A stretch of DNA of 64,000 bases from assembly GCA_034432775.1 (NCBI GenBank), contig DAOUBH010000019.1, forward strand, positions 9,719 to 73,718, read 5' to 3'. Below are positions 5,623 to 30,682 of the stretch, in pieces (position 1 is the first letter of the stretch; the number at the start of each line of letters is the position of its first letter). The notes under the pieces were generated by a model. The model saw only the letters and a program-made list of their open reading frames with translations, was not told the origin of the DNA and searched no databases. The position numbers and the translations under genes are program-made. Source of the stretch: Chloroflexota bacterium (lineage in GTDB: Bacteria; Chloroflexota; Chloroflexia; DAOUBH01).

Positions 5623-5631
5623 TGCTATAAT
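5623..5631 (+). promoter_or_regulatory. Extended -10 promoter (TGcTATAAT) for the small basic ORF
   Basis: TG at 5623-5624 and TATAAT at 5626-5631, 40 nt upstream of ATG 5672. Confidence 0.65.
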
Positions 5632-5671
5632 ACACCCTTCGGTAGGGGAAAACAAAGTCTGGGAGGGAATT

Positions 5672-5767: not shown

Positions 5768-5770
5768 CCC

Positions 5771-6943: not shown

Positions 6944-6953
6944 GGTTCCCTCC

Positions 6954-15535: not shown

Positions 15536-15585
15536 CAGGCTACCCCCCGGTGTTTTCTGCACCATTGTATCTTTTTCATCCACAC

Positions 15586-16467
15586 TCATCTACTTGCTGG
15601 GCTCAAAACCTCGCCTATGAGACGCGCCACATCCTTGGGGGTCACTGCTACCCCTATGCCGCACCGCTCAAAGGCCTCTATCTTCGACCGGTATGAGCCC
15701 ATGCCGCGGGTTATGATGGCCCCAGCATGCCCCATCTGTTTTCCCTCTGGAGCTGTCCTGCCGGCGATTATGCCCACTACTGGCTTGGTCACATGGGATG
15801 CCACGTATTCAGCAGCTTCCTCTTCTGCCACACGACCTATTTCCCCAATGATGACTATAGCCTTGGTCTGCTGATCCGCTTCGAACCTCTCCAAGATGTC
15901 CACGAAGGAAACACCTGTTACTGGATCGCCTCCAATGCCAACACAGGTGGACTGGCCGAAACCGGCCTTGGTGAGGGTATCTGCTACCAGGTACGAAAAC
16001 GTACCACTTCGGGAGACGATACCTACAGGACCAGGTCTATAAATGTGGCCCGGCATGAAGCCGATGACGCACTCTCCAGGAGTTATGATGCCAGGAGAAT
16101 TAGGGCCTATCATGACAGCTCCGGTTTCGCGCACCTTGAAGGCCATCATCATGGCGTCCCGCACAGGCACTCCCTCGACCACACAAGCTATGAAGCCGAT
16201 CCCAGCGTCGAGGGCTTCGAAGACGGCATCCAAGGTGTAGGGGGCTGGCACAAAGGTGATAGTCGCATCGGCATGATGATCAGCCAACGCATCCTTCACA
16301 GAATCGTAAATAGGGACCCCATGTACCTCGCTGCCACCCTTGCCAGGGGTAACTCCGGCTACGATGCGCGTCCCGTACTGCATCATGAGGCCGGTATGAT
16401 ACTCGCCGAACCTTCCCGTCATGCCTTGAGCTATCACTCGAGTGTTACGGTCGACGAGTATGCTCAC
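15586..16467 (-). CDS. sucD: Succinyl-CoA synthetase alpha subunit
   Basis: GTG start overlapping the sucC stop; QGMTG, GPNSPG, SRSGT, GIGGDP, MGHAGA (phospho-His). Confidence 0.9.
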   Translation of the reverse strand: MSILVDRNTRVIAQGMTGRFGEYHTGLMMQYGTRIVAGVTPGKGGSEVHGVPIYDSVKDALADHHADATITFVPAPYTLDAVFEALDAGIGFIACVVEGVPVRDAMMMAFKVRETGAVMIGPNSPGIITPGECVIGFMPGHIYRPGPVGIVSRSGTFSYLVADTLTKAGFGQSTCVGIGGDPVTGVSFVDILERFEADQQTKAIVIIGEIGRVAEEEAAEYVASHVTKPVVGIIAGRTAPEGKQMGHAGAIITRGMGSYRSKIEAFERCGIGVAVTPKDVARLIGEVLSPASR

Positions 16468-17603
16468 TCCGTACTCCTCGCCAGCTTCACGACCCGGTCC
16501 ACAGCTGCATAGAAGTCGGGGACGAAGAACAGGTTGGGCCGGCTCGCCTGCTCCATTATCGCCCGGGCCTCGTCGGAATTCCTGCCCTGGAGGCACACCA
16601 CTACAGGCATAGTGAGGTGCGGCAATCTGTCCATGGCATCGACTATCCTCTCAGCAATCACATCGCAACGCACCCCGCCCCCAAAGACGTTGATGAATAT
16701 AGCCTTCACCCTGGGATTGTCTGCCACGATGGTCAAGCCGTCATAGATACCACCAGCCAATATGCGGTCACCTTCGTCCAGGAAATTGGCTGGCCTGCCT
16801 CCGGCCAACTGGATCATGTCCATAGTGGCCATGGTAAGCCCAGCGCCGTTGCTTATGATCCCGATGTCGCCATCCAGTTCAACGTAGCTGAGGCGTGCCT
16901 TGGCCGCTCTCTCTTCTACATCTGAAGTAAAATTGCGTTCCACTTCCGGATGTCTGAAGAGGGCGTTGCCATCCACATTCAGTCTGGCGTCAGCCGCCAA
17001 GAGACGCCCATCGCTAGTCACCACCAAAGGATTTATTTCAGCCAGTTCAGCGTCCATCTCCCAATAGATTCGGTATAGGGAATGGACGATAGGTTCCGCA
17101 GCCTCCCGGAGTCCCGGCGGCAGCCGTTTCAACAGTCCCCGGACTTGGTACCCGAGGAGCCCGTACCTTGGATCGACACGGACCTGTTCCAGGTTTGAGG
17201 GGCTCTCGGCGGCCACCGCCTCTATCTCCACGCCGCCCTCACTGCTGAACATTACCAGCGGAGATGCCGGGATCCGTCGTGCATCGGTAACAACGCCCAG
17301 GTACAGTTCCTGTGCCACGTCAAGCCACTCTTCTACCAGTAGCTTTCGAACTTGCTCGCCCCGAACCTCGCCACCCAGCAAGGCGGCAGCGGCCTCCAGT
17401 GCTTGCTCCAAGCCTTCTACAAGCCGTATACCCCCGGCCTTGCCGCGACCACCCACCAACACTTGGGCCTTAATGGCGACCCTGGGACCTAGCTCAGCCA
17501 GAGCCCCTTCTACCTCAAGAAGAGATTGGCAAACTATGCCTCTAGCCACCGGGATGCCGAACTGAGCAAATATGGCTTTGGCCTGATACTCGTACAGCTT
17601 CAA
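16464..17603 (-). CDS. sucC: Succinyl-CoA synthetase beta subunit
   Basis: TTG start; LYEYQAK, KAQVLVGGRGKAGGI, EINPL, NGAGLTMATMD, PANFLD, NVFGG. Confidence 0.9.
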   Translation of the reverse strand: MKLYEYQAKAIFAQFGIPVARGIVCQSLLEVEGALAELGPRVAIKAQVLVGGRGKAGGIRLVEGLEQALEAAAALLGGEVRGEQVRKLLVEEWLDVAQELYLGVVTDARRIPASPLVMFSSEGGVEIEAVAAESPSNLEQVRVDPRYGLLGYQVRGLLKRLPPGLREAAEPIVHSLYRIYWEMDAELAEINPLVVTSDGRLLAADARLNVDGNALFRHPEVERNFTSDVEERAAKARLSYVELDGDIGIISNGAGLTMATMDMIQLAGGRPANFLDEGDRILAGGIYDGLTIVADNPRVKAIFINVFGGGVRCDVIAERIVDAMDRLPHLTMPVVVCLQGRNSDEARAIMEQASRPNLFFVPDFYAAVDRVVKLARSTE

Positions 17604-18703
17604 GGCCGCCTCATCACCCCCCGACCTGAAACTTGGAATTGCTCGATGACGCTTACAAGTCTGTCGTTCTCCTCAGGAAGCCCGATAGTGACGCGGAACC
17701 AGCCATCATCGGAGAAGGCCCTCACTATTACTCCGTGGCTCAGAAAATACTCTTGAACGGGCGACGTATCCGCTCCTAACCGTACATAGATGAAGTTCCC
17801 CTGAGTTGGCAGAAACTCCAAGCCAAGCCGCCGATACTCGCAGTAGAGCCTATCCCTTTCGCGGGAGTTGAGCATGGCTCGTTCCTTCACGATATCTTGA
17901 TGCCGCAAGCTCTCAACCGCAGCCCTCTGAGCCAGATCGTTCACTGTGAAGGGCCCCTGGGTCTTCCTAACTTCGGCGATCAGCTGGCTGTTGCCAACGG
18001 CATAGCCTATCCTAAGGCCAGCCAGACCGTATATCTTCGAAAAAGTGCGCAACACCAGAACGTTGGGAAGTTGCACAGCAGAAGGCAGCAACTGCGGGAA
18101 GTCAGGTGCATCGGCGTATTCGTAATAAGCTTCGTCCACTATCACCAGCACATCCTCAGGGATTGCCTCTATAAACCTCTTGAGCTCCCTGTGGCTCACG
18201 TAGGTCCCAGTAGGGTTGTTGGGATTGCAGACTATAACGAGGCGGGTTGCATCATCTACCCGGGCTGCCATGGCCTCTAGGTCGTGCCGCCCTTCCCTCA
18301 GGGGCACTGGTACGGGAACTGAACCAAGTATGCGACAATATATAGAGTAGAGCAGGAACGAAGGATGGGCAAATACTACCTTATCGCCAACACTCACGGC
18401 TGCCATAAAGGCCGCCAGCAGCACTTCGCCGGAACCATTCCCTACTATGACGTTGTCCGGACCCACCCCCAGGTGGGCAGCCAGAGCCCTCCGTACTTCC
18501 CAGCAATCGTTGTCTGGATAACGGTTTAACTCAGCAGCCCATTGGGGAAGCAGCTCCAACACGGGACCGAAGGGCGGCAGCGGAGACTCATTAGAGGCCA
18601 GCTTTACCACTCGATCCAGCCCATAGCGGCGCCGGACCTCCTCGATCCGCAGACCTGGGACATAAGGCGGTATTGCTACCAATTGGGGGCGAAGCTTTAC
18701 CAT
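17600..18703 (-). CDS. hisC: Histidinol-phosphate aminotransferase
   Basis: KLASNE, NRYPD, NPNNPTG, DEAY, RTFSKIYGLAGLRIGY. Confidence 0.9.
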   Translation of the reverse strand: MVKLRPQLVAIPPYVPGLRIEEVRRRYGLDRVVKLASNESPLPPFGPVLELLPQWAAELNRYPDNDCWEVRRALAAHLGVGPDNVIVGNGSGEVLLAAFMAAVSVGDKVVFAHPSFLLYSIYCRILGSVPVPVPLREGRHDLEAMAARVDDATRLVIVCNPNNPTGTYVSHRELKRFIEAIPEDVLVIVDEAYYEYADAPDFPQLLPSAVQLPNVLVLRTFSKIYGLAGLRIGYAVGNSQLIAEVRKTQGPFTVNDLAQRAAVESLRHQDIVKERAMLNSRERDRLYCEYRRLGLEFLPTQGNFIYVRLGADTSPVQEYFLSHGVIVRAFSDDGWFRVTIGLPEENDRLVSVIEQFQVSGRGVMRRP

Positions 18704-18716
18704 CTCCTCTGCTCCT

Positions 18717-18742
18717 GGGCGCCAGGCCCTAGCCTGGCGCCC
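18717..18742. repeat. GC-rich 11-bp inverted repeat between trpB2 and hisC
   Basis: GGGCGCCAGGC-ccta-GCCTGGCGCCC. There is no U-tract on the minus (sense) strand, so a stability or processing hairpin is more likely than an intrinsic terminator. Confidence 0.6.
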
Positions 18743-18757
18743 TTCTACGATATGGAA

Positions 18758-20131
18758 TCAGGCCTGCACCCGCGGCACCTGTTCGAGAGCCTTGTGCACC
18801 AGCTCCTCTGGGTACTCGTAATCGGCCAGTTGCCCGGCCAGATACTCTTCGTAGGCCTTCAGGTCGAAATGCCCGTGCCCGCTCAAGTTGAATAGAATGG
18901 TCTTGGCCTCTCCAGCCTCCTTGGCCAGCAGGGCCTGTTCTATGGCCACCAGCACTGCGTGGGCCGATTCGGGTGCGGGAATGATGCCCTCGGCTCGAGC
19001 GAAATTCACCGCAGCCTCAAAGACAGCTGTTTGGGGTACAGCCTTCGCACTGATGATGCCGTGGTAGGCAAGAGCACTCACGATGGGGGCCATGCCGTGG
19101 TAGCGGAGGCCGCCAGCATGAATGGCCGGAGGTATGAAACTGGAACCCAGGGTGTGCATTCGCAGCAAAGGTGTCATCTGGGCGGTGTCCCCAAAATCGA
19201 AAGTGTAAACGCCCTTGGTAACACTGGGGCAAGCCAGGGGCTCCACGGCGATCACCTCTAGTTTCTGGCCCCGGGTCAGCTTATCCATGATGAAGGGGAA
19301 GGTCAGCCCGGCGAAGTTCGAACCGCCCCCTATGCATCCAATTACCACATCGGGGTAATACCCTGCCTTTTCCATCTGCTTCTTGGCCTCAAGCCCCAAT
19401 ATGGTCTGGTGCATGAGAACGTGGTTGAGAACACTACCCAAGGAGTAATGGGTATCCTCCCTTGTCGCCGCGTCCTCAATGGCCTCCGATATGGCAATAC
19501 CCAGGCTCCCTGGATTGTCGGGATCTTTCTCCAACACTGAACGGCCGTAATTGGTGTCAGGGCTGGGGCTCGGCACAACCTTAGCGCCGAAGGTCTCCAT
19601 GATGATCCTTCGGTACGGCTTCTGGAAGTAGCTCACCTTTACCATGTAGACCTTGCACTCCAAGCCAAAGAAGTTGCAGGCCATGGAGAGGGCGCTGCCC
19701 CACTGTCCAGCCCCGGTCTCCGTAGTCAACCGCTTGATTCCCTCTGCTTTGTTGTAGTAAGCCTGGGCCACAGCGGTGTTAGGTTTGTGGCTGCCTACAG
19801 GGCTAACCCCCTCGTACTTGTAGAAGATCCTGGCAGGCGTGTCCAGAGCCCGTTCCAGCCTCCGAGCCCTGAAGAGCGGTGTCGGCCTCCAAAGGCGGTA
19901 CACATCCATCACGGGTTCGGGTATGTCGATCCACTTGTCCCGGCTGACTTCCTGCTTGATCAGCTCCATGGGGAAGAGCGGCGCCAAATCCTGGGGGCCA
20001 ATAGGTTGCCCTGTACCCGGATGGATAACCGGGGGCAGTTCAAAGGGTAGATCAGCTACGATGTTGTACCACTGCTTCGGTATCTCGTTCTCCTCAAGCA
20101 AGTACTTGTACGTCTCCATGTCCGCCTCCAA
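18758..20131 (-). CDS. trpB2: Tryptophan synthase beta chain type 2 (TrpB2, TrpB-like PLP enzyme)
   Basis: [40 protein letters not shown], plus the long N-terminal extension typical of TrpB2. Confidence 0.93.
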
Positions 20132-20255: not shown

Positions 20256-20687
20256 CTACCGGCGAAGGTTAACACGCTCCTCTCCAAAGTGTTCCTTTAG
20301 CCACCTGAGGCCATCCTCAAAGGTACTGCCCGTAGGGAACACCTCGGCCACACCCATCTCTTTGAGCTTAGGAACGTCTTCCAAAGGTATGGTGCCGCCC
20401 ACCAAAACCACCTTGTCGCCTATGCCCTCCTCCCTCATCCTCTGAAGGATGCGCCTCGTGTAGCCTAAGTGGGCCCCCGAAAGTATGTTGAGGACCACCA
20501 CGTCGACGTCCTCTTGCAGGGCTGCGTTGACTATCTGATCCACGGTCTGGTGGAGCCCTGTATAGATGGCCTCCATGCCATGGTCCTTAAAGTACTTGAC
20601 CAGCAGCTTAGCGCTTACATCGTGGCCGTCCAAACCCGGCTTGGCGACCAGTATCCTGAGGGGACGTCTCTCGACCATGCCCATCAC
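20256..20687 (-). CDS. Cobalamin-binding small subunit of an acyl-CoA mutase
   Basis: KPGLDGHD (DxHxxG-type base-off/His-on motif), YTGLHQT, GGTIP. Confidence 0.92.
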   Translation of the reverse strand: MMGMVERRPLRILVAKPGLDGHDVSAKLLVKYFKDHGMEAIYTGLHQTVDQIVNAALQEDVDVVVLNILSGAHLGYTRRILQRMREEGIGDKVVLVGGTIPLEDVPKLKEMGVAEVFPTGSTFEDGLRWLKEHFGEERVNLRR

Positions 20688-22355
20688 CTAAAATATGTTC
20701 ATAGGCTCTCGAAACTCGCCGAAGACATCCCGAAGCACAGCCGTCATCTCGCCGACTGTGCAGTAAGCCTTCACAGCCTCCAAGGTGGCGGGCATTATGT
20801 TCTCGCCGCTCTCGGCAGCCCTCCGCAGCTCCCGAAGGGCTCGGTCTACAGCAGCCTGGCTGCGCATCTCTTTGACCTTACGCAGGGACTCCAATTGTTC
20901 CTCGATGACCCGCTCATCCCGCTTCATGAGCTTCATGGGAGGCTGCTCGTTTTCCTTAACGAAGATGTTCTCCCCCACCACCAGCTGCTCCTTGGTCTCG
21001 TAAATTGCCTTGTACCGCTTGTAACTTTCCTCTAGCACGATCCGCTGTACGTAGCCGTCCTCTATGGATTTGATGATGCCGCCCCGGTCCCAGATGTGCT
21101 GCATGAACTTCTCGATCTCTTCCTGCATGCGGTTGGTCAAGCTCTCGACGAAGTAGGAACCGGCCAAGGGATCTACGGTGTTGGCTACCCCCGACTCGTA
21201 AGCTATGATCTGTTGAGTCCGCAGGGCAATTTCTTGGGCCTCGGGTGTAGGTATAGCGTAGGCCTCGTCCTTAGTGTTGACGGTGAGGGCCTGCACTCCC
21301 CCCAGCACAGTGGCCAAGGCCTCGATGGTGCCCCGGATAATGTTGTTGTCGGGTTGGTGGTAGGTGAAGGTCCCGCCTGGGGTCCCAGCGAACCATCGCC
21401 ACATCCAGGAGGTGGGTTTCTTGGCACCATAGCGGTATCGGATGAGCTTTGCCCAGATACGCCTAGCAGCTCGGAACTTCGCTACCTCTTCGAAAAGATC
21501 CATGTAAGAGGCCATATTGAATGTAACCCTGTGGACGAAGGAATCGATGTCCAACCCTCTGGACAAAGCATTCTCGATGTAGGCACAGGCATTCAGGAAA
21601 CAGAGCCCTACCTCCTGGACGGCATTGGCCCCACTCTCCCTGATATGGTAGCCACAGACACTCACAGGATTGAAGCGAGGCATGTACTTGGAGCAGAACT
21701 CGAACATGTCGCCGATGAGGCGCATGGAATGCTCGAGAGGAAATATCCAGGCACCACGGCCAATGTACTCCTTCAAGATATCGTTCTGTACGGTGCCGGC
21801 TACCCTCTCCATGGGAACACCTTGCTTCTCAGCAACAGCCACGTACATGGCCGTGATGATGGGAGTAATAGCGTTAATGGTGAAGCTAGTGCTCAGTCGA
21901 TCCAGAGGCAGCCCATCGAAGAGGATCTCGAAGTCCAGCAGGCTATCGATGGCCACACCTACGGTGCCCACCTCGTCCTGAAATTCCTCATGGTCGGAGT
22001 CGTAGCCCATCTGAGTGGGTAGATCAAAGGCGCATGACAATCCGGTCTGGCCCTCTTCCAGGAGCCACTTCCAAAGCTGATTGGTGTAGCGAGGTGTGCC
22101 AAAGCCGGAGTACTGGCGCATGGTCCACAGCTTCTTGCGGTACATAGTGGGGTATATGCCTCGGGTGAAGGGGTACTCGCCCGGAAGCCCCATATCCCGC
22201 ATGTAATCCATGCCCTCTACATCTTTGGGTGTGTAGAGAGGTTTGATCTCGATGCCCGATGACGTGTAGACCTTGGGCAGTTCACCGATTTGGTTCTCTT
22301 TCTCCCACCGCTCCAGCTCCTCGTCTAGTGGTCCCACTCCTACCTCGATAGCCAT
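20688..22355 (-). CDS. B12-dependent acyl-CoA mutase large subunit (methylmalonyl-CoA mutase family, divergent barrel residues)
   Basis: PGEYPFTRG, WTMRQYSGF, FDLPTQ, QNDILKE, GYHIRE, ALRTQQI. The usual RFHTQTAG reads RWFAGTPG. Confidence 0.9.
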   Translation of the reverse strand: MAIEVGVGPLDEELERWEKENQIGELPKVYTSSGIEIKPLYTPKDVEGMDYMRDMGLPGEYPFTRGIYPTMYRKKLWTMRQYSGFGTPRYTNQLWKWLLEEGQTGLSCAFDLPTQMGYDSDHEEFQDEVGTVGVAIDSLLDFEILFDGLPLDRLSTSFTINAITPIITAMYVAVAEKQGVPMERVAGTVQNDILKEYIGRGAWIFPLEHSMRLIGDMFEFCSKYMPRFNPVSVCGYHIRESGANAVQEVGLCFLNACAYIENALSRGLDIDSFVHRVTFNMASYMDLFEEVAKFRAARRIWAKLIRYRYGAKKPTSWMWRWFAGTPGGTFTYHQPDNNIIRGTIEALATVLGGVQALTVNTKDEAYAIPTPEAQEIALRTQQIIAYESGVANTVDPLAGSYFVESLTNRMQEEIEKFMQHIWDRGGIIKSIEDGYVQRIVLEESYKRYKAIYETKEQLVVGENIFVKENEQPPMKLMKRDERVIEEQLESLRKVKEMRSQAAVDRALRELRRAAESGENIMPATLEAVKAYCTVGEMTAVLRDVFGEFREPMNIF

Positions 22356-22366
22356 TTGACACCTCC

Positions 22367-23158
22367 CTATAAGTCAGCCCTGAGTGAACCTTCTGGATCG
22401 ACACGAAGCCTGAGCACTTCCAATTCCTCTGCAGTAGGCTCTGGCATGGGATCTATATGATCAGGGACTACCAGCTCAAACCCCGTGTTCTTGACGACGG
22501 TATCAACGTCGACGCCCGGAAAGAGGTGCTTTATGCGCATAGCTTTACTTTCCTCTTCGAAGTCGAAGATGCCCAAGGGTGTCAGCACGTACTCGGGCCC
22601 TCCTCCGGGCAGACCGAGCTTCATGCGCGCATCGGCTCCGCCCGCACCCCAGCCTACAGCAGAAACGTAGTCACACCGCTGCACAAAGACCCTGGGCGAG
22701 TGGCTGTTTGTGTAAATGAAGAACCGTTTGACCATGGACATAACTGTGGATGTACCCACACTGCCTGGACCCCGGAACTTAAGTCGCCGCGGATCGGAAC
22801 CTACGCCGATGAGGTTGCAGTTGCCGAAGCGATCTATCTGTATCCCACCTGCAAAGCACAGGTCCATACGCCTGATGGCGTTGGTGAGCAACTCAAGGGG
22901 CATTATGGCCTCAGCCCACTTCGCCATACGTGGGTCAACGATATGGGCAAGACTCCCCACTTTCTGGACATGGGCCAGATTGGTGAAGTAGGAGAGCACG
23001 TTCAACCTCAGATCCGGAGCGTGGGTAAGATGGGCTAGAAAGACCCCCGCAGTAGGCACCGGAAGGTTCGTACCCACCGAAACATAATCCCCGTTCTTTA
23101 TCTGCCTCGCAATAAATATGGCTATCAGCTCCTTGGCCGATACTTGAGCATGCCCCAT
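22367..23158 (-). CDS. Class I CoA-transferase-like beta subunit (GctB/IpdB/AibB fold) lacking the catalytic Glu
   Basis: VGTNLP, QIDRFGNCN, GSVG, LTPLGIFDF, NTGFEL, VDP. APDLRLNVLS sits where GctB has APDCHIIVES. Confidence 0.85.
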   Translation of the reverse strand: MGHAQVSAKELIAIFIARQIKNGDYVSVGTNLPVPTAGVFLAHLTHAPDLRLNVLSYFTNLAHVQKVGSLAHIVDPRMAKWAEAIMPLELLTNAIRRMDLCFAGGIQIDRFGNCNLIGVGSDPRRLKFRGPGSVGTSTVMSMVKRFFIYTNSHSPRVFVQRCDYVSAVGWGAGGADARMKLGLPGGGPEYVLTPLGIFDFEEESKAMRIKHLFPGVDVDTVVKNTGFELVVPDHIDPMPEPTAEELEVLRLRVDPEGSLRADL

Positions 23159-23160: not shown

Positions 23161-24057
23161 CTATTCCACCGTCAGCGCTATGATGCGGTCCATGCCGACC
23201 CGTTCCAGATACTCCCCATGGCTGCGAGGCCCCAAAATGTAGGTCTCCAGGTACTCTCGGAAGGGACCATCGTCGCCCTCCAGAGCCGCCTTTGCCACAG
23301 CCACATATCGGCGCAGATGCTCCTCATCCAACTTGTAGAACCCCTCGAAGGAGAGCGGATGGGCACCGAAGGGAGCAAGCACCACCATGTCTACGAACTC
23401 GCAAGGAACCGTTGTCTCTGTAGGGGCGCGGCGTATTACCTCGTTGGGAACTATGCGCTCAACTTCCACAACCACCTTGTCGGCAGCCTGGGCCAGAAGG
23501 ATATCAGCAAATTGGGCCCCCAAGTGCTGCACATTCCCGTAGATATCGGCCTGCGCCGCATGGAGAAAGACCACATCCAGATGGATCGGAGGTGCCGCTA
23601 CAAGGGGCGGCCCTCCGAAGGGGTCCTCCACCCACTTAAGGCGAGGATTCAAATCGGGGATCGAAGTGCCCACTGGTCCCCGAACAGGCAGGAAGGGCAG
23701 TTCCTGGATCTTGGCCTTCAGTTGGGCAAGGACAAGCCCTAGGTCTACCTCCAGAACTTCGATGGCGCCTTCGGAAGCACGCCTACCGAAGAAGGGTCCT
23801 ATGGGCGCCACGGACTCCAGACCAACATAGGGGGTAGAAACGGTCTTGACGACCCCCAACCCTATCAGAAGGTCGACATCGTAGCTGGAAGGCGGCGCAA
23901 AGACGGTCAGATCCTTTACACCGCGCCTGGCCAGAGCGCGCAGCAATGCCATGGGCTTCGCCGCGGTGATGAAGCCGCCTATCCCTATGGTGTCTCCGTC
24001 CCTTACAAGGCTTACGGCTTCCTCGAAAGTAGCGACAACCGGCGTCCTTTCAGCTAT
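23161..24057 (-). CDS. Class I CoA-transferase-like alpha subunit (GctA fold); probable ATA start
   Basis: TFEEAVSLVRDGDTIGIGGF...KPMALLRAL lies in frame upstream of the first ATG (23952). LPFLPVRG, HAAQADIYGN and PFGAHP are present. GGAGG sits 6 nt before ATA at 24057. Confidence 0.85.
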   Translation of the reverse strand: MAERTPVVATFEEAVSLVRDGDTIGIGGFITAAKPMALLRALARRGVKDLTVFAPPSSYDVDLLIGLGVVKTVSTPYVGLESVAPIGPFFGRRASEGAIEVLEVDLGLVLAQLKAKIQELPFLPVRGPVGTSIPDLNPRLKWVEDPFGGPPLVAAPPIHLDVVFLHAAQADIYGNVQHLGAQFADILLAQAADKVVVEVERIVPNEVIRRAPTETTVPCEFVDMVVLAPFGAHPLSFEGFYKLDEEHLRRYVAVAKAALEGDDGPFREYLETYILGPRSHGEYLERVGMDRIIALTVE

Positions 24058-24068
24058 GGTGCCCCTCC

Positions 24069-24938
24069 CTACGAACCCTTTGTGTAATCGTAGAAGCCTC
24101 TCCGGGTCTTCCTCCCCAGCCTGCCAGAACGAACCATCTGAGTAAGAAGGTAACTCGGCCTGTATTTGGGATCACCGAATTCTTGCATCATGTAGGTCAT
24201 GTTTTCCCAAACGATGCCCACGCCGTTGGTGTAGTCGGCAAGCTCCAACGGACCCATGGGATGCCCGAGGCCCAGTTTGATGGCCTTGTCGATATCCTCG
24301 GCACTTGCTATGCCCTCGGCCAGCATGCAAGCAGCCTCGTTTATGATCACCGATACCATGCGGCTGGTTATAAAACCCGGCGTGTCTTTTATGACCACCG
24401 TCTCCTTGCCCAGCCGTGCGGACAACGCCTTGATGGTCTCTACTGTGTCTTCGTCGGTCTGAGCACCCCGCACGATCTCAACTAGCCGCATTACGGCTAC
24501 AGGGTTGAAGAAGTGCATCCCGATAACCTTGTGGGGACGGCGGGTGGCCGAAGAAATGTCAGTTATGCTCAGGGCCGACGTGTTGCTAGCCAAAATGGTG
24601 TCTGGACGGGTCAGCCGATCTAGGTCGGCGAAGAGAACTTTCTTCAAATCCATTTTCTCAGGTATGGACTCTATCACGAGATCCACATCGCCCACAGCCT
24701 CTTCTAGGGACAGGTAACCACGGAGTCGCCCCATGACCTGGACCGCCTCCTCGGCAGTCATCTTGCCCTTCTCCACGAAAAACTTGCTGAGGTTGTCGGA
24801 TATCCCCTTCAAAGCCCTGTCCAGCAGCACCTGATCGACATCCCTCAGGCTGACCGTAAGGCCTGCCATAGCCATGACTTGGGCGATCTGGCTGCCCATA
24901 ACGCCGGCGCCGACTACGGCAACTCTATTGACTTGCAT
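24069..24938 (-). CDS. 3-hydroxyacyl-CoA dehydrogenase (second paralog)
   Basis: GAGVMGSQIA, ESIPE, SNTS, GMHFFNP, HPMGP, GRKTRRGFY. Confidence 0.95.
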   Translation of the reverse strand: MQVNRVAVVGAGVMGSQIAQVMAMAGLTVSLRDVDQVLLDRALKGISDNLSKFFVEKGKMTAEEAVQVMGRLRGYLSLEEAVGDVDLVIESIPEKMDLKKVLFADLDRLTRPDTILASNTSALSITDISSATRRPHKVIGMHFFNPVAVMRLVEIVRGAQTDEDTVETIKALSARLGKETVVIKDTPGFITSRMVSVIINEAACMLAEGIASAEDIDKAIKLGLGHPMGPLELADYTNGVGIVWENMTYMMQEFGDPKYRPSYLLTQMVRSGRLGRKTRRGFYDYTKGS

Positions 24939-25587
24939 GCTTTACCTCCGGAAGGGTTTCGTGACTGAGGAGAGATCGCAGTACCATGGCCTGACATGTG
25001 GCATAGAGGTCGTCCAAGGCAACTAGGTGGCTCCGTGCCTTCCCAGACTCCGCCATCAGGATTACACCTGTCCACATACCCCAAATGGTATTGGTGACTC
25101 TCCAGCTATCGTCGAGGCGAAAGAGTCCCTGCTGCGCACCGTCCCTCAGAATGCCATCCAGGATGCCGAGACAGATGTTGGCCTTTCCGACAATTACTTC
25201 GTAGAGATGCCGCGGAACCCTTACCAGCTGGCTTCCTTGATGGATGAGAAACATGACATCGAAGTAGGCCCTGTGGTCCTTATAGAAGGTGAGGTACGCT
25301 TCCCCCAGGGCTAGCAGCCGCTCCGTGGGAGAACCCTTCATGCTCCCTACTGGACCCCAATATTGATCGTAGAGGACGTCCAAACCCTCCGCCAATACCC
25401 AGCCATACAGCTCCTCTTTGCTTTGAAAGTGCAGGTATATGGCACCCTTGCTGATGTCTGCTTGGTCAGCTATGTCCTCCATAGTAGCAGCCATAAAGCC
25501 CCTCGAGAAGAAAACATCCCTCGCGGCTGCTAGGATGTCCGCCCGCCGTGCCTGCCGCTCCTTAAGCCTGCGGTCGCCCCCGGCCAA
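24925..25587 (-). CDS. TetR/AcrR family transcriptional regulator
   Basis: TTG start; HTH ATMEDIADQADISKGAIYLHFQSKEEL. Confidence 0.92.
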   Translation of the reverse strand: MAGGDRRLKERQARRADILAAARDVFFSRGFMAATMEDIADQADISKGAIYLHFQSKEELYGWVLAEGLDVLYDQYWGPVGSMKGSPTERLLALGEAYLTFYKDHRAYFDVMFLIHQGSQLVRVPRHLYEVIVGKANICLGILDGILRDGAQQGLFRLDDSWRVTNTIWGMWTGVILMAESGKARSHLVALDDLYATCQAMVLRSLLSHETLPEVKHASQ

Positions 25588-25864: not shown

Positions 25865-26920
25865 TTGGACGAACGGGAAGCCATCAGACTTACCGAACTG
25901 GCCTCCTGCGCCGGTTGAGCTGCTAAGATAGGTCCTTCGGACCTGGCGCAGGTTCTGCGCCCTCTGCGCAAGTTCACACACCCGGATCTGTTGGTGGGCC
26001 TCCAGTGGGGTGACGATGCCGCCGTATACCGGCTGGACTCCGATAGGGCCCTCATTGCCACTGTCGACTTCTTCCCGCCCATTGTCGACGCCCCCTACAC
26101 CTACGGTGCTATAGCTGCTGCCAACTCCCTCAGCGACATATTTGCCATGGGCGGTGAAGTGTTACTGGCCCTGAACGTCGTGGCCTTTCCCGACACCCTT
26201 TCGAGGTCAATCCTCAGCGAAATCCTTCAAGGTGGCGCCGACAAGGTCGCCGAAGCGGGAGGAATTATCGCTGGAGGACACACTGTGACCGACAGGGAAC
26301 CAAAGTATGGCCTGTGTGCTATCGGTCTAGTCCACCCTGACAAAACAATGACCAAAGCCGCAGCAAGGCCCGGCGATCTGTTGGTCCTGACCAAGCCCTT
26401 GGGGACAGGGGCTATTACCACTGCCCTGAAGGCTAAAGTCGTCGACTCCGAGCACCTGAGGGGCGCCGTGCATTCCATGCTGACCCTCAACCGAAGGCCA
26501 TCGCAGATTTTCGTATCCTTGGGAGTACGAGCCTGTACCGACGTCACAGGCTATGGCCTCTTGGGCCACGCCCTGGAGATGGCTGATGCTTCCGGCGTCA
26601 GTATAGAGATCGATGTGGAAAAGGTGCCCTTACTGCAAGGCGCCTACGAGTATGCCCAGCGGGGCATCCTGCCTGGTGGTGCCTGGCGAAACCGCGATCA
26701 TCTCCTTCCCCCAGACGGAGAGCCCAGAGTGTACTATCCGCCTGGCATCCCAGAGCCGATCTTACACTTGCTTTACGACCCAGAGACTTCGGGGGGGTTG
26801 CTCGCAGCCGTGCCGCTGTCCCGCATCGAGGCTCTGGAAGACCAGTTTGAGGCGTCTAACCTTCCCCTTTGGATAGTGGGAAGAGTCAGAGAGGGCCGCG
26901 ATATCGTCCTGAAACTCTGA
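25865..26920 (+). CDS. selD: Selenide, water dikinase (selenophosphate synthetase), selenoprotein with Sec at codon 18
   Basis: TTG at 25865 after a GAGGAG SD gives MDEREAIRLTELASCAG-U-AAKIGP, with in-frame TGA at 25916-25918, continuous with the 25991 ORF (DDAAVY, TVDFF, NSLSD, GGHT, DVTGYGL, DPETSGGLL). Confidence 0.93.
25920..25951 (+). promoter_or_regulatory. Candidate bacterial SECIS element of selD
   Basis: Stem AGGTCC-ttc-GGACCT begins 11 nt after the UGA, with a lower CTGC/GCAG helix. Confidence 0.6.
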
Positions 26921-26997: not shown

Positions 26998-29820
26998 CTA
27001 CCCAGCCACCTTGCCCAACATGGCAGCCTTAACCTTCTGAGGTTTAGCCGGGATTGCCGTCAGCCTCACACCGATGGCATCATAGATCGCGTTGCAGATC
27101 GCTGCGGCCATGGGTATAAGACCCGCCTCCGATACACCTTTTGCGCCGAAGGGACCAAGGGGATCCTCGTCTTCGATGAGGATCACCCGAAAATCCGGGC
27201 ACTGCTCGATGGTAGGCACCCGCACCTTACCAAAGGTATCGGTCAATACGTAACCACCCTCGACTTTAAACTCCTCTGTCAGGGCGTAACCCATTCCCTG
27301 GAGGGCTGCCCCGATGATCTGACCCTCTACCCCTCTCGGGTTAATCGCCTTTCCTACGTCGTGGACCGATATCACCTTTACCACACGAACCTTGCCAGTG
27401 GCCTCGTCCACTTCAACAATAGCCACTTGAGTGGCGTACGTATAGTTGAAGTGGTAGAAGGAATGTGCCGGGTCGGCATTGGGTATTCCCTTGTCGGCCA
27501 AAGCGGGATCCGGCAAGTGATCCGTCTTCGGCGCTATAAAGACGTACTGCGACTTAAGTTCCTTCCCCTCGGTGACCGTCAATTTGGCCAGCATGTCCAG
27601 GCTCAACAGCCTGTCGCCCTGTCTGGTACGGAACTCACCGTCGGTGTAGACTATATGCTCGTAGGGTATGCCCATTCGTTCGGCCACTTCGATCTTGGCC
27701 TGCCGCTCGATGTCGTCAAGGCAACCCAGAACTGCCTTACCGACGAGCATGGTCATTCTCGAGGCGCAAGTCGACCCAGCGCTGGGAGTATTGCAAGTAT
27801 CCGGCGGCATTACTGCTACGCGATCCAAGGGCACCCCGAACCGCTGACTGGCCATTATGGCCAAGACCGTCTCATGTCCCTGCCCGATCTCGGCGCCTCC
27901 CGTCCGGATCAACAAGCGTCCGTCCTCGGTCATCTCCACGGCAGCGCCCACGGCTTCAGGCACCGCAACTCCCATGCCAGAGTTCTTGAAGCAGGAGGCC
28001 ACTCCTACGCCATACCGTCGGCCAGGCGCTGGAGAGGGCAGCTTTCTGAGTTCTTCTTCTAGGGCTTCTTTCGCAGCCCTGAGGGTTTCGGTCAGCCTTA
28101 CAACTCCAGCTGTACCAACGAGAGGCTGACCCACGGCCGTGACATCCCCAGGCCTCAGAGCATTGAGCTCCCTCACAGTGAAGGGATCCATCCCAAGCAC
28201 TCTGGCCAAAGCGTCCATCTGCTGCTCTACGGCAAAGTGAGCCTGGGGAACGCCGAAGCCCCGAAAGGCGCCTGCCACAGGGTTGTTAGTATAGACGCCT
28301 ATGGCCTCGACCCTAAAGTTGGGCACCCTGTAGGGCCCCCCTCCGAAGATGGTCACCGCTTCGACCACTGCCGATCCCGTGGAAGCGTAGGCCCCCGAGT
28401 CTAGCAGCACCTTAACCTCCATGGCCACGAGAGTCCCATCTCGCTTGGCTCCCAACCTATGATAGATGCGGGTGGGATGCCGCTTTGGATGGTTCTTCAG
28501 CGATTCGTACCGGGAAAACACTAACTTGCAGGGCCGGCCGGTCTTCAGCACACCCAGGGCAAGCATGTTCTGGACAGATATGTCGCACTTGCTGCCGAAG
28601 GATCCCCCTGTAGGCATGTGCACGATCCTGACCTTCTCCACAGGGAGACCTAGTACCTGGGCAACCTGCCTGGCCTCTTCATGGGGATTCTGATCCCCTA
28701 CGTAAATGGTAACGCCTCCGTCTTCGTTGGGCTCGGCCACCCCGGACTCTACTTCGAGGTAAGCGTGTTCCTGCCAAGGGGTGGAATAAAAGCCTTCTAC
28801 GATCACGTCACAATCAGCCCAGGCAGCGTCCGGGTCGCCTTTGAGCACATGACTTCTGAAGAGGATGTTGGTTCCCTGTGGTCCAACAATTGGCGCGTCG
28901 GCCTCCAATGCTCTCTCGGGGGTATCCACCACTTCGAGGGGCCGATAGGTCACCTTAATGCGCTTGACCGCCTCTTCGGCTATCTCGGGTGTCTCGGCAT
29001 ACACTACGGCCACCGGGTCTCCTACATACCTGACCTTGTCGTCGCATAGGGCCGGTTGGTCGTCCACAATCTGGCCATAGCGGTTCTTTCCGGGCACATC
29101 CTTATATGTCAGGACCGCAGCTACCCCAGGCGTGGCTTCGGCCTCGCTCGTGTCGACGTCGAGGATCTCTGCGTGGGGATACTCGGCCCACAGGACTTTG
29201 CCATGAAGGACTCCAGCAGGATAAAGGTCAGCAGAGAACTGCAACCTCCCGGTGACGGTTTCTAAAACCCTCAGCCTGCGGGGGCTGTGTGCAAGTACCG
29301 GATCTTCGATGGGAGGAGGGACTTCGCCCCGGATCCTGGCAGCAGCTATCTGGGTTGCCCTCTGAACCGCAGCGATGATCCTAGGATATTCTCCACACCT
29401 ACAAATGTTGCCTTTGAGCGCCCTTTTTATATCCTGCGGAGTGGGCGATGGGTTCTTTCCCAGGAGGGCAGCCGCAGAAATTATCAGACCAGGCGTACAG
29501 AAGCCGCATTGGAGGGCACCATGCTCTACAAAGGCTTCCTGCACAGGGTGCAACATTCCACCCTCGGCAAGGCCCTCGATGGTAACAACCTCTTTACCTT
29601 GTAGCCTCCCCAGTTTCAGCAGACAGGCCTTTTCCGCTTCTCCATTGACCAGCACCATACAGGTCCCGCAACTTCCTTCCGAACATCCATCCTTAGTTCC
29701 CGTAAGGTGCAGGTGATCCCTCAGGTACGACAACAGGGTCATTTGGGCTGGACCTTCGACCGTGACCTCACGGCCATTGATCGTAAAGGTGACCTGGGTT
29801 GTCTCTGACACCCGCTGCAT
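26998..29820 (-). CDS. Xanthine dehydrogenase/aldehyde oxidoreductase family Mo-hydroxylase, 2x[2Fe-2S] domain fused to the Mo-binding subunit
   Basis: GCSEGSCGTC, QCGFCTPG, CRCG, GGSFGSK, AFRGFG, GAEIGQG, ASR, GAKGVSEAG; start at MQRVSE after a GGAGAGGTGA SD. Confidence 0.9.
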   Translation of the reverse strand: MQRVSETTQVTFTINGREVTVEGPAQMTLLSYLRDHLHLTGTKDGCSEGSCGTCMVLVNGEAEKACLLKLGRLQGKEVVTIEGLAEGGMLHPVQEAFVEHGALQCGFCTPGLIISAAALLGKNPSPTPQDIKRALKGNICRCGEYPRIIAAVQRATQIAAARIRGEVPPPIEDPVLAHSPRRLRVLETVTGRLQFSADLYPAGVLHGKVLWAEYPHAEILDVDTSEAEATPGVAAVLTYKDVPGKNRYGQIVDDQPALCDDKVRYVGDPVAVVYAETPEIAEEAVKRIKVTYRPLEVVDTPERALEADAPIVGPQGTNILFRSHVLKGDPDAAWADCDVIVEGFYSTPWQEHAYLEVESGVAEPNEDGGVTIYVGDQNPHEEARQVAQVLGLPVEKVRIVHMPTGGSFGSKCDISVQNMLALGVLKTGRPCKLVFSRYESLKNHPKRHPTRIYHRLGAKRDGTLVAMEVKVLLDSGAYASTGSAVVEAVTIFGGGPYRVPNFRVEAIGVYTNNPVAGAFRGFGVPQAHFAVEQQMDALARVLGMDPFTVRELNALRPGDVTAVGQPLVGTAGVVRLTETLRAAKEALEEELRKLPSPAPGRRYGVGVASCFKNSGMGVAVPEAVGAAVEMTEDGRLLIRTGGAEIGQGHETVLAIMASQRFGVPLDRVAVMPPDTCNTPSAGSTCASRMTMLVGKAVLGCLDDIERQAKIEVAERMGIPYEHIVYTDGEFRTRQGDRLLSLDMLAKLTVTEGKELKSQYVFIAPKTDHLPDPALADKGIPNADPAHSFYHFNYTYATQVAIVEVDEATGKVRVVKVISVHDVGKAINPRGVEGQIIGAALQGMGYALTEEFKVEGGYVLTDTFGKVRVPTIEQCPDFRVILIEDEDPLGPFGAKGVSEAGLIPMAAAICNAIYDAIGVRLTAIPAKPQKVKAAMLGKVAG

Positions 29821-29860
29821 CGGGAAAATCACCTCTCCTTGCATTGACGATAAGAACTCA

Positions 29861-30682
29861 TTACTGGTGCTCCCACTGTTCCCCCAAAGCCCTGACAATG
29901 TCACCCCGGGTCACAATGCCCACCAGTTTGCCTTCGTGGACCACTGGGAGGCGACGAATGCGGTTAGCCACCATGAGCCTCCCGGCTTCCACAGCTGGTA
30001 CCTCGGGCGACGTAGTGATGACGTGGGTAGTCATAATGTGTCCCACCGTGTCCCTATCTTCGTCGGCGTGAGTCAAGACGTCATGCTCCGTAGCAATACC
30101 GAGAATTTTCCCGCTCTCGTCCACAACAGGGACACCGCTGATACCATACTTGTTGAGGAGCACAGCCAACTGTCCCACACTGCAGTCGGGTCCTACCGTG
30201 ATGACTGGGCTGTTCATTATGTCCGCAACCTTTATCTGGAGAATGCTGAGCTCAGTTCTGACTTGAGGATAGGCCTTGGTGATAACCTGATCCCCCCACT
30301 TCATAGGGGCTTCGGCTTCTTGCGGGCGCCCGACAGCCAGATCGTCCTTGATCTCATCGACCGTTACCTCCACAACAGCGGCAGGGAAGGGCGAACTCTC
30401 CATCTCTTCCTTGACAATACGCGCCCTGCCCCGTATGCTGATGGCCATACCCCTGCCCATGGCTACAAGCCTGACCTTGCCCGACCGACGAATGTTCCGC
30501 AGACTGGCTATATCGCGATGGATGGCCATAGACAGCGTTCGCCTATCCTTCACTTTGATCCACGACATGGGAGCAGTATGGGGCCAACCATCCTCATCCA
30601 CGGTAGCCAAAATGAGCGTTGGAACATGCTCCAGGTTCTGCATGATCTTGTCTGTCAGCTCTCCACCTATCACCTTCCCCAT
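29861..30682 (-). CDS. Pyridoxamine-5'-phosphate-oxidase-like FMN-binding split barrel fused to a CBS pair
   Basis: N-terminus LILATVDEDGWPHTAPMSW...SLRNIRRSGKV; C-terminus VADIMNSPVITV...ISGVPVVD...IRRLPVV...LVGIVTRGD. Confidence 0.75.
   Translation of the reverse strand: MGKVIGGELTDKIMQNLEHVPTLILATVDEDGWPHTAPMSWIKVKDRRTLSMAIHRDIASLRNIRRSGKVRLVAMGRGMAISIRGRARIVKEEMESSPFPAAVVEVTVDEIKDDLAVGRPQEAEAPMKWGDQVITKAYPQVRTELSILQIKVADIMNSPVITVGPDCSVGQLAVLLNKYGISGVPVVDESGKILGIATEHDVLTHADEDRDTVGHIMTTHVITTSPEVPAVEAGRLMVANRIRRLPVVHEGKLVGIVTRGDIVRALGEQWEHQ

Follow-up and report, generated by a model that had tools for sequence, protein, structure and literature searches.

A GctAB-like subunit pair lacking both known catalytic glutamates is encoded beside a B12-dependent acyl-CoA mutase

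Background

Thousands of database proteins are labelled 'glutaconate CoA-transferase', most of them without the catalytic glutamate of that enzyme, and the alternative chemistries characterised to date are, to our knowledge, just two: those of the hydrolase IpdAB and the decarboxylase AibAB. The window analysed here, a 64,000-nucleotide stretch of a contig from a Chloroflexota bacterium, encodes an alpha/beta pair of this kind in a long string of catabolic genes (Table 1). The question raised by this locus is what such a pair may do when the catalytic glutamates of the transferase and of the hydrolase are both replaced.

Table 1. Positions of the alpha/beta pair, its motifs and neighbouring genes in the window
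Feature	Positions	Strand	Remarks
Beta subunit, GctB/IpdB/AibB-like	22367-23158	minus	263 aa; Leu55 in the catalytic Glu column
Beta motif APDLRLNVLSYF	22985-23020	minus	opposite GctB APDCHIIVESGL; sequence alignment and ungapped register on the shared A-P-D
Alpha subunit, GctA/IpdA-like	23161-24057	minus	298 aa; begins at non-canonical ATA (24057-24055)
Alpha motif EVDLG	23737-23751	minus	Leu106 (counted from the ATA codon) opposite IpdA Glu105
Shine-Dalgarno sequence GGGAGGGG	24062-24069	minus	overlap with hbd stop codon; GGAGG core finishes 6 nt before the alpha ATA
Fused [2Fe-2S]/molybdopterin hydroxylase	26998-29904	minus	968 aa; closest to selenium-dependent xanthine dehydrogenase, below its cut-off
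TetR-family regulator	24925-25587	minus	operon head
3-Hydroxyacyl-CoA dehydrogenase (hbd)	24069-24938	minus	directly upstream of alpha
Acyl-CoA mutase large subunit	20688-22355	minus	555 aa; MCM-type Tyr (RQY) and Arg (GRGAWI); Ala at HCM Asp117
Mutase small, B12-binding subunit	20256-20687	minus	143 aa
SucC-like ADP-forming succinate-CoA ligase beta subunit	16464-17603	minus	above NCBIfam cut-off
SucD-like ligase alpha subunit	15586-16470	minus	start approximate
Hydantoinase-A-type subunit, ATP-dependent lactamase	11355-13418	minus	closest family caprolactamase CapA
Hydantoinase-B-type subunit	9589-11337	minus	nearer N-methylhydantoinase/caprolactamase than acetone carboxylase
Distal section of this gene string	1640-9059	minus	six genes
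NDP-forming acyl-CoA synthetase	6954-9059	minus	distal gene string
Acyl-CoA dehydrogenase	5771-6943	minus	distal gene string; canonical FEG motif
Second 3-hydroxyacyl-CoA dehydrogenase	4740-5618	minus	distal gene string
Crotonase	3939-4724	minus	distal gene string
Isopropylmalate/tartrate-dehydrogenase-like gene	2867-3973	minus	distal gene string
Thiolase	1640-2824	minus	distal gene string

Replacement of the catalytic glutamates

The beta ORF matches PF01144 in a profile search (4.6e-14), as does alpha, and matches GctB (PDB 1poi_B) with E=5e-30 across residues 6-256. An earlier note on this DNA had claimed that leucine replaces the glutamate with which GctB forms the CoA thioester; alignment and ungapped register bear this out, with Leu55 (codon 22994-22996) facing Glu54 of GctB, a residue of the beta subunit that is catalytically essential (PMC5380842). 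The same register places Cys56 of AibB and a glycine of IpdB in this column, in agreement with the published descriptions of both proteins. The loss is not remarkable alone, because most GctB-like proteins share it: just 20 of 138 representatives retain the glutamate when the column is located by an ungapped count from the conserved proline (the MAFFT alignment of distant representatives is off by one or two residues). None of the 120 closest beta homologues has glutamate at this position, which is occupied instead by Leu (51), Ser (28), Ala (14), Met (9), Gly (7) or Thr (3). Two positions past Leu55, at the active-site strand, the clade has a specific tyrosine (Tyr57) where transferases have the glycine of E-x-G, and a comparison of the clade with its relatives yielded no clade-specific acidic residue able to substitute for the lost glutamate.

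The ATG-based alpha ORF (23161-23952) is shorter than the actual gene, and the public annotation, which begins at this ATG (23952), omits 35 residues including the N-terminal motif GDTIGIGGF; the annotated ORF, if expressed, would give a truncated and probably inactive protein. The alpha subunit is equally similar to GctA (3.8e-39) and IpdA (1.5e-38). Its EVDLG aligns with REMDEG of IpdA, and the leucine faces the residue that is alanine in PDB 6coj (title 'IpdAB E105A'), which upholds the earlier reading that the catalytic Glu105 of IpdA is missing here. Glu103 and Asp105, flanking the lost residue, are conserved family-wide, also in AibA. Across the clade, the IpdA-Glu column holds Leu, Asn, Val, Gln or Ala, and the beta column varies among Leu, Met and Tyr. 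Loss of both glutamates has a precedent in AibAB (Cys in AibB and Gly in AibA at the two columns). As judged from the sequences, the informative feature is the loss of the alpha glutamate, which marks a distinct clade tied to a B12 mutase.

Conservation and predicted structure

Both genes have a pN of 0.09 and a pS of 0.70-0.74 relative to the 87%-identical relative L089. When the beta sequence is compared with homologues 47-87% identical to it, 33 columns are invariant, and many residues near the former active site are unchanged. AF2 single-chain models were confident (pLDDT 88.5 for beta and 96.7 for alpha), and these single chains superpose on GctAB, IpdAB and AibAB with TM of 0.75-0.92. 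The alpha and beta genes are intact and under purifying selection, and the argument of that note against decay, from the intactness of the remaining fold, evidently stands. On the basis of pN/pS, the invariant columns and the AF2 models, both proteins are predicted to be functional.

Distribution and gene context

Among 83 related loci, the IpdA-type alpha glutamate is kept in 68 and lost in 15. A mutase gene adjoins none of the 68 and 11 of the 15, with the order almost always alpha, beta, mutase large subunit, mutase small subunit (Fisher p=8e-11 over the 83 loci, a test that ignores phylogeny). Around three actinobacterial members of the Glu-less-alpha clade, no mutase gene lies within 10 kb, which counts against a decarboxylase role for the pair. 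The clade, whose signature is N-V-L-S-Y-F in beta and E-V-D-L-G in alpha, is nested among relatives that already lack the beta glutamate but have the IpdA-type base; the nearest large sister clade keeps E-x-D-E-G and has crotonase and acyl-CoA dehydrogenase genes as neighbours.

In mutase-linked clusters, an ATP-dependent lactamase and a SucCD-like (succinyl-CoA-ligase-like) pair are usually present, and a Mo-hydroxylase is frequent. The combination of Mo-hydroxylase, Hyd-type lactamase and carboxylate-type B12 mutase is found in the window and in clusters L010, L011 and L089. L008 has an IOR-alpha equivalog and L011 a PaaK-like ligase, indicative of arylacetate activation. The gene set of L004 comprises a crotonase, alpha, beta, the mutase and SucCD; this crotonase could be a YgfG-type decarboxylase, and the MmdA-like carboxyltransferases encoded in L001, L010 and L014 could likewise decarboxylate, two further points against a decarboxylase role for alpha/beta. 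The relatives found by a plasmid search were all 40% identical or less and bore generic names. Literature searches found no published work on the combination of hydantoinase, mutase and glutaconate CoA-transferase genes.

The mutase large subunit retains the equivalents of the carboxylate-binding Tyr89 and Arg207 of MCM and has no counterpart of Asp117 of HCM; therefore, its substrate would have a free carboxylate. A 2-hydroxyisobutyryl-CoA mutase/acetone pathway, suggested by the adjacent Hbd gene and by HcmA as the best PDB match, was ruled out by the same comparison (MCM-type Tyr, Arg and Ala versus Ile90, Gln and Asp117 of HCM). The motif RGAW was judged uninformative about mutase specificity: R-G-A-[C/W/F/Y] is widespread in split-subunit mutase homologues. 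The hydantoinase-type proteins were rejected as an acetone or acetophenone carboxylase, HydB scoring 1e-84 to 1e-96 against N-methylhydantoinase and caprolactamase and 1e-16 against acetone carboxylase. A hydroxyglutarate pathway of glutamate fermentation, suggested by a 2-hydroxyacid dehydrogenase, aminotransferases and the Gct-like genes, was also rejected: a 2-hydroxyacyl-CoA dehydratase is absent here, and the dehydrogenase and aminotransferase genes, which the window shares with its 87% relative alone, resemble those of serine/tryptophan biosynthesis (PGDH-like, class-V aminotransferase, TrpB2, HisC-like).

Predicted function

Because the pair is intact, lacks both glutamates and is tied to a B12 mutase, it most likely decarboxylates the substrate of the mutase or shifts CoA within it. 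We infer, tentatively and with rather less than even confidence, that alpha/beta is a cofactor-free decarboxylase of the AibAB type acting on a substituted malonyl-CoA made by the mutase, an inference that extends to the substrate, the reaction and the role assigned to Tyr57. Mo-hydroxylase, ATP-dependent lactamase and ligase would probably yield an arylsuccinyl-CoA, and the mutase would rearrange the 2-substituted succinyl-CoA to a 2-substituted malonyl-CoA. The pocket of alpha/beta that takes up this malonyl-type thioester and its free carboxylate would owe its hydrophobic character to beta-Leu55 and alpha-Leu106. Release of CO2 would leave a thioester enolate, to be protonated possibly by beta-Tyr57 or by water, and the acyl-CoA product would enter the beta-oxidation encoded in the operon (FEG-type acyl-CoA dehydrogenase, crotonase, 3-hydroxyacyl-CoA dehydrogenase and thiolase).

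The analogy with AibAB, a proven acyl-CoA decarboxylase of this fold that shares the doubly Glu-less state, favours decarboxylation, and the tolerance of AibB at the Glu column fits the variable non-polar residues in the beta column of the clade. IpdAB-type C-C cleavage and malonyl-type decarboxylation would both give a thioester-stabilised carbanion at C-alpha, so that losing the water-activating base may have been a short evolutionary step. We know of no enzyme of this fold that decarboxylates a malonyl-type thioester; the AibAB substrate, 3-methylglutaconyl-CoA, is vinylogous. The acyl-CoA dehydrogenases examined in the clusters carry FEG (window) or YEG (L029), and none has the GGG found in place of YEG in the decarboxylating IaaF type (PMC8360864); therefore, a separate decarboxylase would be needed.

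The main alternative, though on balance unlikely, is that the pair instead acts as an analogue of IaaL in an intramolecular CoA shift, interconverting the regio-isomers of a 2-substituted succinyl-CoA and giving the mutase the isomer with CoA on the carboxyl beside the substituted carbon. The free carboxylate of the substrate, replacing glutamate, would attack the thioester, forming a cyclic anhydride and leaving CoA bound as a thiolate, which would in turn attack the other carbonyl, with the two Glu-to-Leu changes excluding water from the anhydride. This is exactly the step that the anaerobic indoleacetate (iaa) pathway needs, performed there by the intramolecular phenylsuccinyl-CoA transferase IaaL (PMC8360864). 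An IaaL-like family-III CoA-transferase is not recurrent among the 126 neighbouring ORFs of the related clusters (a single occurrence would escape this count), and the activating enzymes of L008 and L011 put CoA on the arylacetate first, so that lactam opening would then yield the wrong regio-isomer. The alpha and beta subunits are nearest in sequence to the true CoA-transferase GctAB, and in mutase-linked loci their genes directly precede those of the mutase. Although MmdA-like carboxyltransferases could supply decarboxylation in three clusters, a CoA shift leaves this step without an enzyme in most, and the nesting of the clade among relatives with the IpdA-type base means that transferase-like chemistry would have to have been regained. 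We know of no family-I enzyme that transfers CoA intramolecularly, nor of one that dispenses with its nucleophile; the intramolecular transferases known to us (IaaL and mesaconyl-CoA C1-C4 transferase) belong to family III and keep their aspartate. A nucleophile-free 'CoA shuttle' on a family-I scaffold, operating via an enzyme-shielded cyclic anhydride and feeding a B12 mutase in Gram-positive anaerobic degradation of auxin or indole derivatives, is likewise unlikely.

Equal similarity of alpha to IpdA and GctA, the family-wide conservation of Glu103 and Asp105, and a sister clade that retains the IpdA glutamate beside crotonases and acyl-CoA dehydrogenases would accord with an IpdAB-like hydrolase or lyase, using another base for retro-Claisen or retro-aldol C-C cleavage of a beta-oxo or cyclic acyl-CoA to a dicarboxyl-CoA that the mutase rearranges. 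This is improbable, as the clade has lost throughout the only residue to which the role of IpdAB base has been assigned, AibA, a non-hydrolase, likewise conserves Glu103 and Asp105, and the surrounding genes are not those of steroid or ring breakdown. Intermolecular CoA transfer (succinyl-CoA:arylsuccinate or propionyl-CoA:succinate) by another nucleophile or in a ternary complex would accord with the source annotations, which name these proteins CoA-transferases; the SucCD pair, above curated succinate-CoA-ligase cut-offs, could regenerate the CoA donor, and the gene set of L004 mirrors the logic of sbm/ygfDGH, propionyl-CoA:succinate CoA transfer belonging to the sbm operon of E. coli. All characterised family-I transferases known to us use the beta glutamate. 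Replacement of both the Glu and the Gly of E-x-G (L-S-Y), the failure of the comparison to reveal a clade-specific acidic residue and the absence of CoA-transferase activity in IpdAB, also devoid of the beta glutamate (PMC5380842), make such a transferase quite improbable. Least credible is a non-catalytic partner, a CoA-ester-binding pseudo-enzyme that would shield a labile succinyl-type thioester or deliver it to the mutase: both known catalytic residues are lost, the genes adjoin those of the mutase and phenylsuccinyl-CoA isomers are reported to be labile (PMC8360864), but many residues around the former active site are invariant, clade-specific residues such as beta-Tyr57 lie at the active-site strand, and AibAB proves the doubly Glu-less state catalytically competent.

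With its clear signature and its constant partners, namely B12 mutase, SucCD-like ligase and ATP-dependent lactamase, the clade makes a third function of this fold directly testable, and the question is open to experiment because two isolates, Paradesulfitobacterium ferrireducens and Metallumcola ferriviriculae, carry the cluster. The cluster suggests that Bacillota degrade heterocyclic or aryl-substituted acids, indoleacetate possibly among them, by an anaerobic route not yet described, in which IaaL and/or IaaF would be replaced by a different protein fold.

Comparison with characterised systems

GctAB of Acidaminococcus fermentans (PDB 1POI) is the best match in sequence and structure (TM 0.80 for beta and 0.92 for alpha), sharing subunit sizes, the GxGGF N-terminal motif of alpha, and A-P-D, QID..GN.N and GLPG of beta. 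The E-S-G of GctB (Glu54 and the Gly two residues on) is L-S-Y in the window; therefore, the covalent Glu-CoA ping-pong mechanism is unavailable. The COCHEA-CoA hydrolase IpdAB of Mycobacterium tuberculosis and Rhodococcus jostii (PDB 6CO6, 6CO9, 6COJ, 6CON) has the same fold, IpdA being 32-34% identical to the window alpha (TM 0.88-0.90) and IpdB more distant from beta (E=2e-14). IpdB likewise lacks the beta glutamate (Gly57; PMC5380842), but IpdA has Glu105 of E-M-D-E-G as catalytic base where the window alpha has leucine. The steroid/HIP context of IpdAB (EchA20, IpdC, IpdF, FadA6, KstR2) is absent from the window, where the neighbours are the mutase, SucCD, the lactamase, Hbd and the TetR regulator.

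[quoted passage not shown] Sequence identity is 20-22% for beta and 31% for alpha, and AibA has 265 residues versus 298 in the window alpha. The residue of AibB at the Glu column is dispensable, since C56A, S, N and V variants are still active (PMC7756340). Glu72 of AibB, the proposed proton relay to the enolate, has no acidic residue opposite it in the window beta in an HMMER alignment that is gapped in this loop; the lack of a clear counterpart is a further observation against a decarboxylase, and the family-conserved beta residues Asp75 and Glu83 lie near the aligned loop. AibAB serves HMG-CoA-derived isovaleryl-CoA synthesis, the genes of which (the aib operon) do not occur within the window, in contrast to the mutase, SucCD and lactamase genes that surround the window pair.

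At the level of pathways, the closest parallel is the anaerobic degradation of indoleacetate by Aromatoleum aromaticum, which proceeds through a Mo-hydroxylase, a Hyd-type gamma-lactamase, an arylsuccinyl-CoA, the IaaGH mutase and then the decarboxylating benzylmalonyl-CoA dehydrogenase IaaF (PMC8360864; PMC5214803). The window shares with it, as family-level gene content only, a Mo-hydroxylase, a Hyd-type ATP-dependent lactamase, a B12 mutase and beta-oxidation, and related clusters encode arylacetate-activating enzymes as the iaa pathway does. Where that pathway has IaaL and IaaF, the window cluster has the alpha/beta pair and a SucCD-like ligase instead, and its substrate may be another heterocyclic compound or substituted succinate.

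Loss of the catalytic glutamates

Of the solved structures, GctB of glutaconate CoA-transferase is closest to the beta subunit (1poi_B, E=5e-30); IpdB of the hydrolase IpdAB (2e-14) and AibB of 3-methylglutaconyl-CoA decarboxylase (3e-10) come next. Glu54-beta of GctB is catalytically essential and makes an anhydride with CoA (PMC5380842). Both an HMMER alignment and an ungapped register anchored on the common Ala-Pro-Asp place Leu55 of beta opposite this residue, in agreement with the earlier note, which had read Leu at the catalytic Glu; the register is sound because AibB Cys56 and IpdB Gly come out of it as published. The transferase E-x-G reads L-S-Y in the window, with the Gly lost as well as the Glu. 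Absence of the beta Glu is not unusual; it is found in none of the 120 closest homologues, and E-x-G is kept in only 20 of 138 full-length GctB-like representatives of the wider family (one per 50% cluster). Tyr57, two residues past Leu55 at the position of the transferase Gly, is clade-specific (90% of the window's clade has Tyr there, the sister clade Thr or Ala), whereas no acidic residue specific to the clade emerged from the sequence comparison. In the wider family, alpha and beta also occur naturally joined in one chain of 559-606 aa (representatives P0147, P0163, P0172, P0187, P0218, P0225, P0228 and P0244), the beta part being residues ~305-600.

The deposited IpdA sequences 6co6_A and 6coj_A differ at a single residue, with which the Leu of the alpha motif coincides; 6COJ is listed by Foldseek as 'IpdAB E105A', which identifies the lost residue as Glu105 and upholds the contrast with IpdA drawn in the earlier note. 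Among 83 related loci, drawn from one genome per species, this column holds Glu in 68 (E-C-D/E-E-G and similar) and Leu (10), Asn (3), Gln (1) or Ser (1) in the other 15; another sample, of 119 alpha homologues, splits likewise, with L, N, V, Q or A in the ~45 closest and E in the remainder. For judging Glu loss the alpha position is more informative than that of beta. The neighbouring Glu103 and Asp105 of alpha are kept family-wide, and AibA and IpdA have both. AibA has Gly, likewise non-acidic, at the IpdA-105 column, so the window enzyme shares a doubly Glu-less state with AibAB, the only member of the fold proven to be a decarboxylase.

Neither gene is decaying, as the earlier note had argued from intact fold motifs. 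Over 32 sequences sharing 47-87% identity with the query, the beta subunit has 33 invariant columns. Compared with L089, the relative at 87% identity, both genes show 0.09 non-synonymous and 0.70-0.74 synonymous changes per site; dS is saturated, so the resulting dN/dS of 0.03-0.05 is only indicative. AlphaFold2 (AF2) models are confident for beta (pLDDT 88.5, pTM 0.89) and alpha (pLDDT 96.7, pTM 0.93), and superpose on GctB, AibB and IpdB with TM 0.75-0.80 (beta) and on GctA, IpdA and AibA with TM 0.92, 0.88-0.90 and 0.78, respectively (alpha).

Features of the alpha/beta operon and its surroundings
Feature	Position	Strand	Remarks
Beta subunit	22367-23158	-	263-codon ORF, Pfam CoA_trans match
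Beta motif APDLRLNVLSYF	22985-23020	-	opposite GctB APDCHIIVESGL
Alpha subunit	23161-24057	-	extent as concluded in the text
Alpha motif EVDLG	23737-23751	-	aligns with IpdA R-E-M-D-E-G
Shine-Dalgarno GGGAGGGG	24069-24062	-	overlaps hbd stop codon
Operon, first block		-	TetR regulator, Hbd, alpha, beta, mutase large, mutase small
Operon, second block		-	TrpB2-like, HisC-like, SucC, SucD, class-V aminotransferase, PGDH-like
Operon, third block		-	HydA, HydB, V4R protein, NDP-forming acyl-CoA synthetase, ACAD, second Hbd, crotonase
Operon, last block		-	IPMDH-like gene, thiolase
TrpB2-like, HisC-like, class-V aminotransferase and PGDH-like genes	13428-15589 and 17600-20131	-	amid core catabolic genes
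SelD (selenide, water dikinase)	25865-26920	+	in-frame TGA 25916-25918
tRNA-Sec gene	40531-40625	-	Rfam RF01852, 71 bits

The start of the alpha gene

Alpha sits two bases upstream of beta. An ATG-based ORF call and the public contig record both start it at ATG 23952 (263 aa), and the public annotation thereby omits 35 conserved residues. The 35 in-frame codons ahead of this ATG encode IAERTPVVATFEEAVSLVRDGDTIGIGGFITAAKP, the canonical N-terminus present in GctA, IpdA, AibA and every close homologue, and contain no ATG, GTG or TTG. The GGAGG core of the Shine-Dalgarno sequence is followed, 6 nt further on, by an ATA codon at 24057. In the 87% relative the equivalent codon is ATC, preceded by GGGAGGG, and a more distant relative has GTG ahead of the identical AERTPVV. 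Codon differences from L089 within this stretch are 14 synonymous and 9 non-synonymous, and AF2 builds its residues confidently into the alpha domain. We conclude that alpha is a protein of 298 aa starting at a near-cognate AUA codon. Since the hbd stop overlaps the Shine-Dalgarno sequence, translational coupling or deliberately low expression of alpha is possible.

Gene neighbourhood and partner enzymes

Of the 15 Glu-less loci, 11 adjoin a B12 acyl-CoA mutase, arranged almost without exception as alpha-beta-mutL-mutS, whereas no mutase lies near any of the 68 loci with a Glu-containing alpha (Fisher p=8e-11, loci being counted without correction for shared ancestry); there the neighbours are crotonases, acyl-CoA dehydrogenases and at times a second alpha/beta pair. 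De novo clustering of neighbour proteins of 17 clade loci gave alpha, beta, mutS (10 loci), mutL (9), SucC (8), SucD (8), HydA (8) and HydB (6) as the core, with 3-hydroxyacyl-CoA dehydrogenase, Mo-hydroxylase, V4R protein, PucR regulator, crotonase and MmdA-like carboxyltransferase as recurrent extras. Locus L008 encodes an indolepyruvate:ferredoxin oxidoreductase (IOR) alpha subunit whose score exceeds the equivalog cut-off, L011 a TRAP transporter along with an arylacetate-CoA ligase of the PaaK family, and L010 and L011 three-subunit Mo-hydroxylases. The clusters with IOR or PaaK-type activation in place of SucCD (L008, L009 and L011) share a 364-aa NAD(P) dehydrogenase of the Octopine_DH family, which matches no NCBIfam entry and lies directly upstream of hbd-alpha-beta.

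At substrate-reading positions the mutase is methylmalonyl-CoA mutase-like, with Tyr in R-Q-Y, Arg in G-R-G-A-W-I and Ala at the positions of Ile, Gln and Asp117, respectively, of 2-hydroxyisobutyryl-CoA mutase; its substrate would therefore bear a free carboxylate (succinyl-, methylsuccinyl- or arylsuccinyl-CoA type). SucC and SucD exceed the NCBI cut-offs for succinate-CoA ligase. HydAB is nearest to caprolactamase and N-methylhydantoinase, not acetone carboxylase, and is therefore a predicted ATP-dependent lactam hydrolase. The embedded TrpB2-, HisC-, aminotransferase and PGDH-like genes, confined to the window and its 87% relative, may be an unrelated insertion, or may tie the operon to the metabolism of tryptophan, indole or serine.

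Immediately upstream of the operon are SelD and a Mo-hydroxylase whose closest family is selenium-dependent xanthine dehydrogenase. SelD proteins carry Cys or Sec at the position where this one has its TGA (...LASCAG-TGA-AAKIG), and it appears to be a selenoprotein, likely with a TTG start at 25865; ORF callers therefore shorten the gene to 25991. Together with the tRNA-Sec gene, this suggests a selenium-dependent hydroxylase beside the operon.

Other arrangements were observed among the related loci. Tandem pairs (L034, L042, L045, L047, L052, L055, L064 and L068, acidobacterial and related) are ordered ECH-ACAD-alpha-beta-ACAD-alpha'-beta', ECH being a crotonase and each pair following an acyl-CoA dehydrogenase, and retain the IpdA-type Glu in alpha. 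Asgard archaeal MAGs (Freyarchaeota, Jordarchaeia; L018, L023, L026 and L028) encode pairs ~50% identical to the window's, with motifs E-C-D-E-A (alpha) and A-P-N-M-R-W (beta). In a Desulfosporosinus MAG (L029, 12231-13700; L088, 13149-14620), a truncated HydB runs on in frame into an acyl-CoA dehydrogenase that itself has a frameshift near its C-terminus, the outcome of either pseudogenisation or an assembly error.

Possible function of alpha/beta

Alpha/beta is not mechanistically a family-I CoA-transferase, because the defining Glu is absent, nor an IpdAB hydrolase, because alpha Glu105 is absent and the gene context differs; the earlier suspicion that the IpdAB mechanism is missing thus holds. 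Its active site is in a state like that of AibAB, from which it is distant in sequence and differs in subunit length and gene context. Alpha/beta is best classed as a new clade of the Gct/IpdAB/AibAB fold, one linked to a mutase. We tentatively propose, at somewhat less than even probability, that the mutase makes a 2-substituted malonyl-CoA from which alpha/beta would remove CO2. This is favoured because both former Glu positions are now hydrophobic, because AibAB has non-acidic residues in both columns and its AibB C56A, S, N and V variants remain active (PMC7756340), because an ordinary-type acyl-CoA dehydrogenase leaves a need for a decarboxylase, and because the clade nests among IpdA-type relatives. 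IpdA-type C-C cleavage would give a thioester-stabilised carbanion, and decarboxylation would differ mainly in needing no water-activating base.

An intramolecular CoA shift like that of IaaL, with the substrate's free carboxylate standing in for the lost Glu, is a second role that fits, at lower probability. It would suit the lack of a recurrent IaaL in the clusters, the prior loading of CoA on arylacetate in some of them (IOR, PaaK) and the placement of alpha/beta directly ahead of the mutase genes, and MmdA-like carboxyltransferases in three clusters could cover decarboxylation; however, the lineage had apparently left transferase chemistry beforehand, and we know of no family-I enzyme that works in this way. 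Most of the remaining probability lies with hydrolysis, true CoA transfer or the role of a non-catalytic partner.

Comparison with anaerobic indoleacetate degradation

In the iaa pathway of Aromatoleum, IaaB activates and a Mo-enzyme hydroxylates, Hyd-type gamma-lactamases open the 2-oxoindole lactam to (2-aminophenyl)succinyl-CoA, IaaL shifts CoA intramolecularly, the mutase IaaGH forms (2-aminobenzyl)malonyl-CoA, and IaaF catalyzes oxidative decarboxylation, followed by beta-oxidation (PMC8360864; PMC5214803). IaaF carries GGG, whereas the acyl-CoA dehydrogenases of the clade clusters carry FEG or YEG as their catalytic motif, the ordinary type, and no family-III CoA-transferase (IaaL type) was recurrent among 126 neighbouring ORFs. 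Likened by enzyme families rather than Iaa sequences, the clade clusters appear to hold the same enzyme set, and alpha/beta is their only conserved protein without an assigned function.
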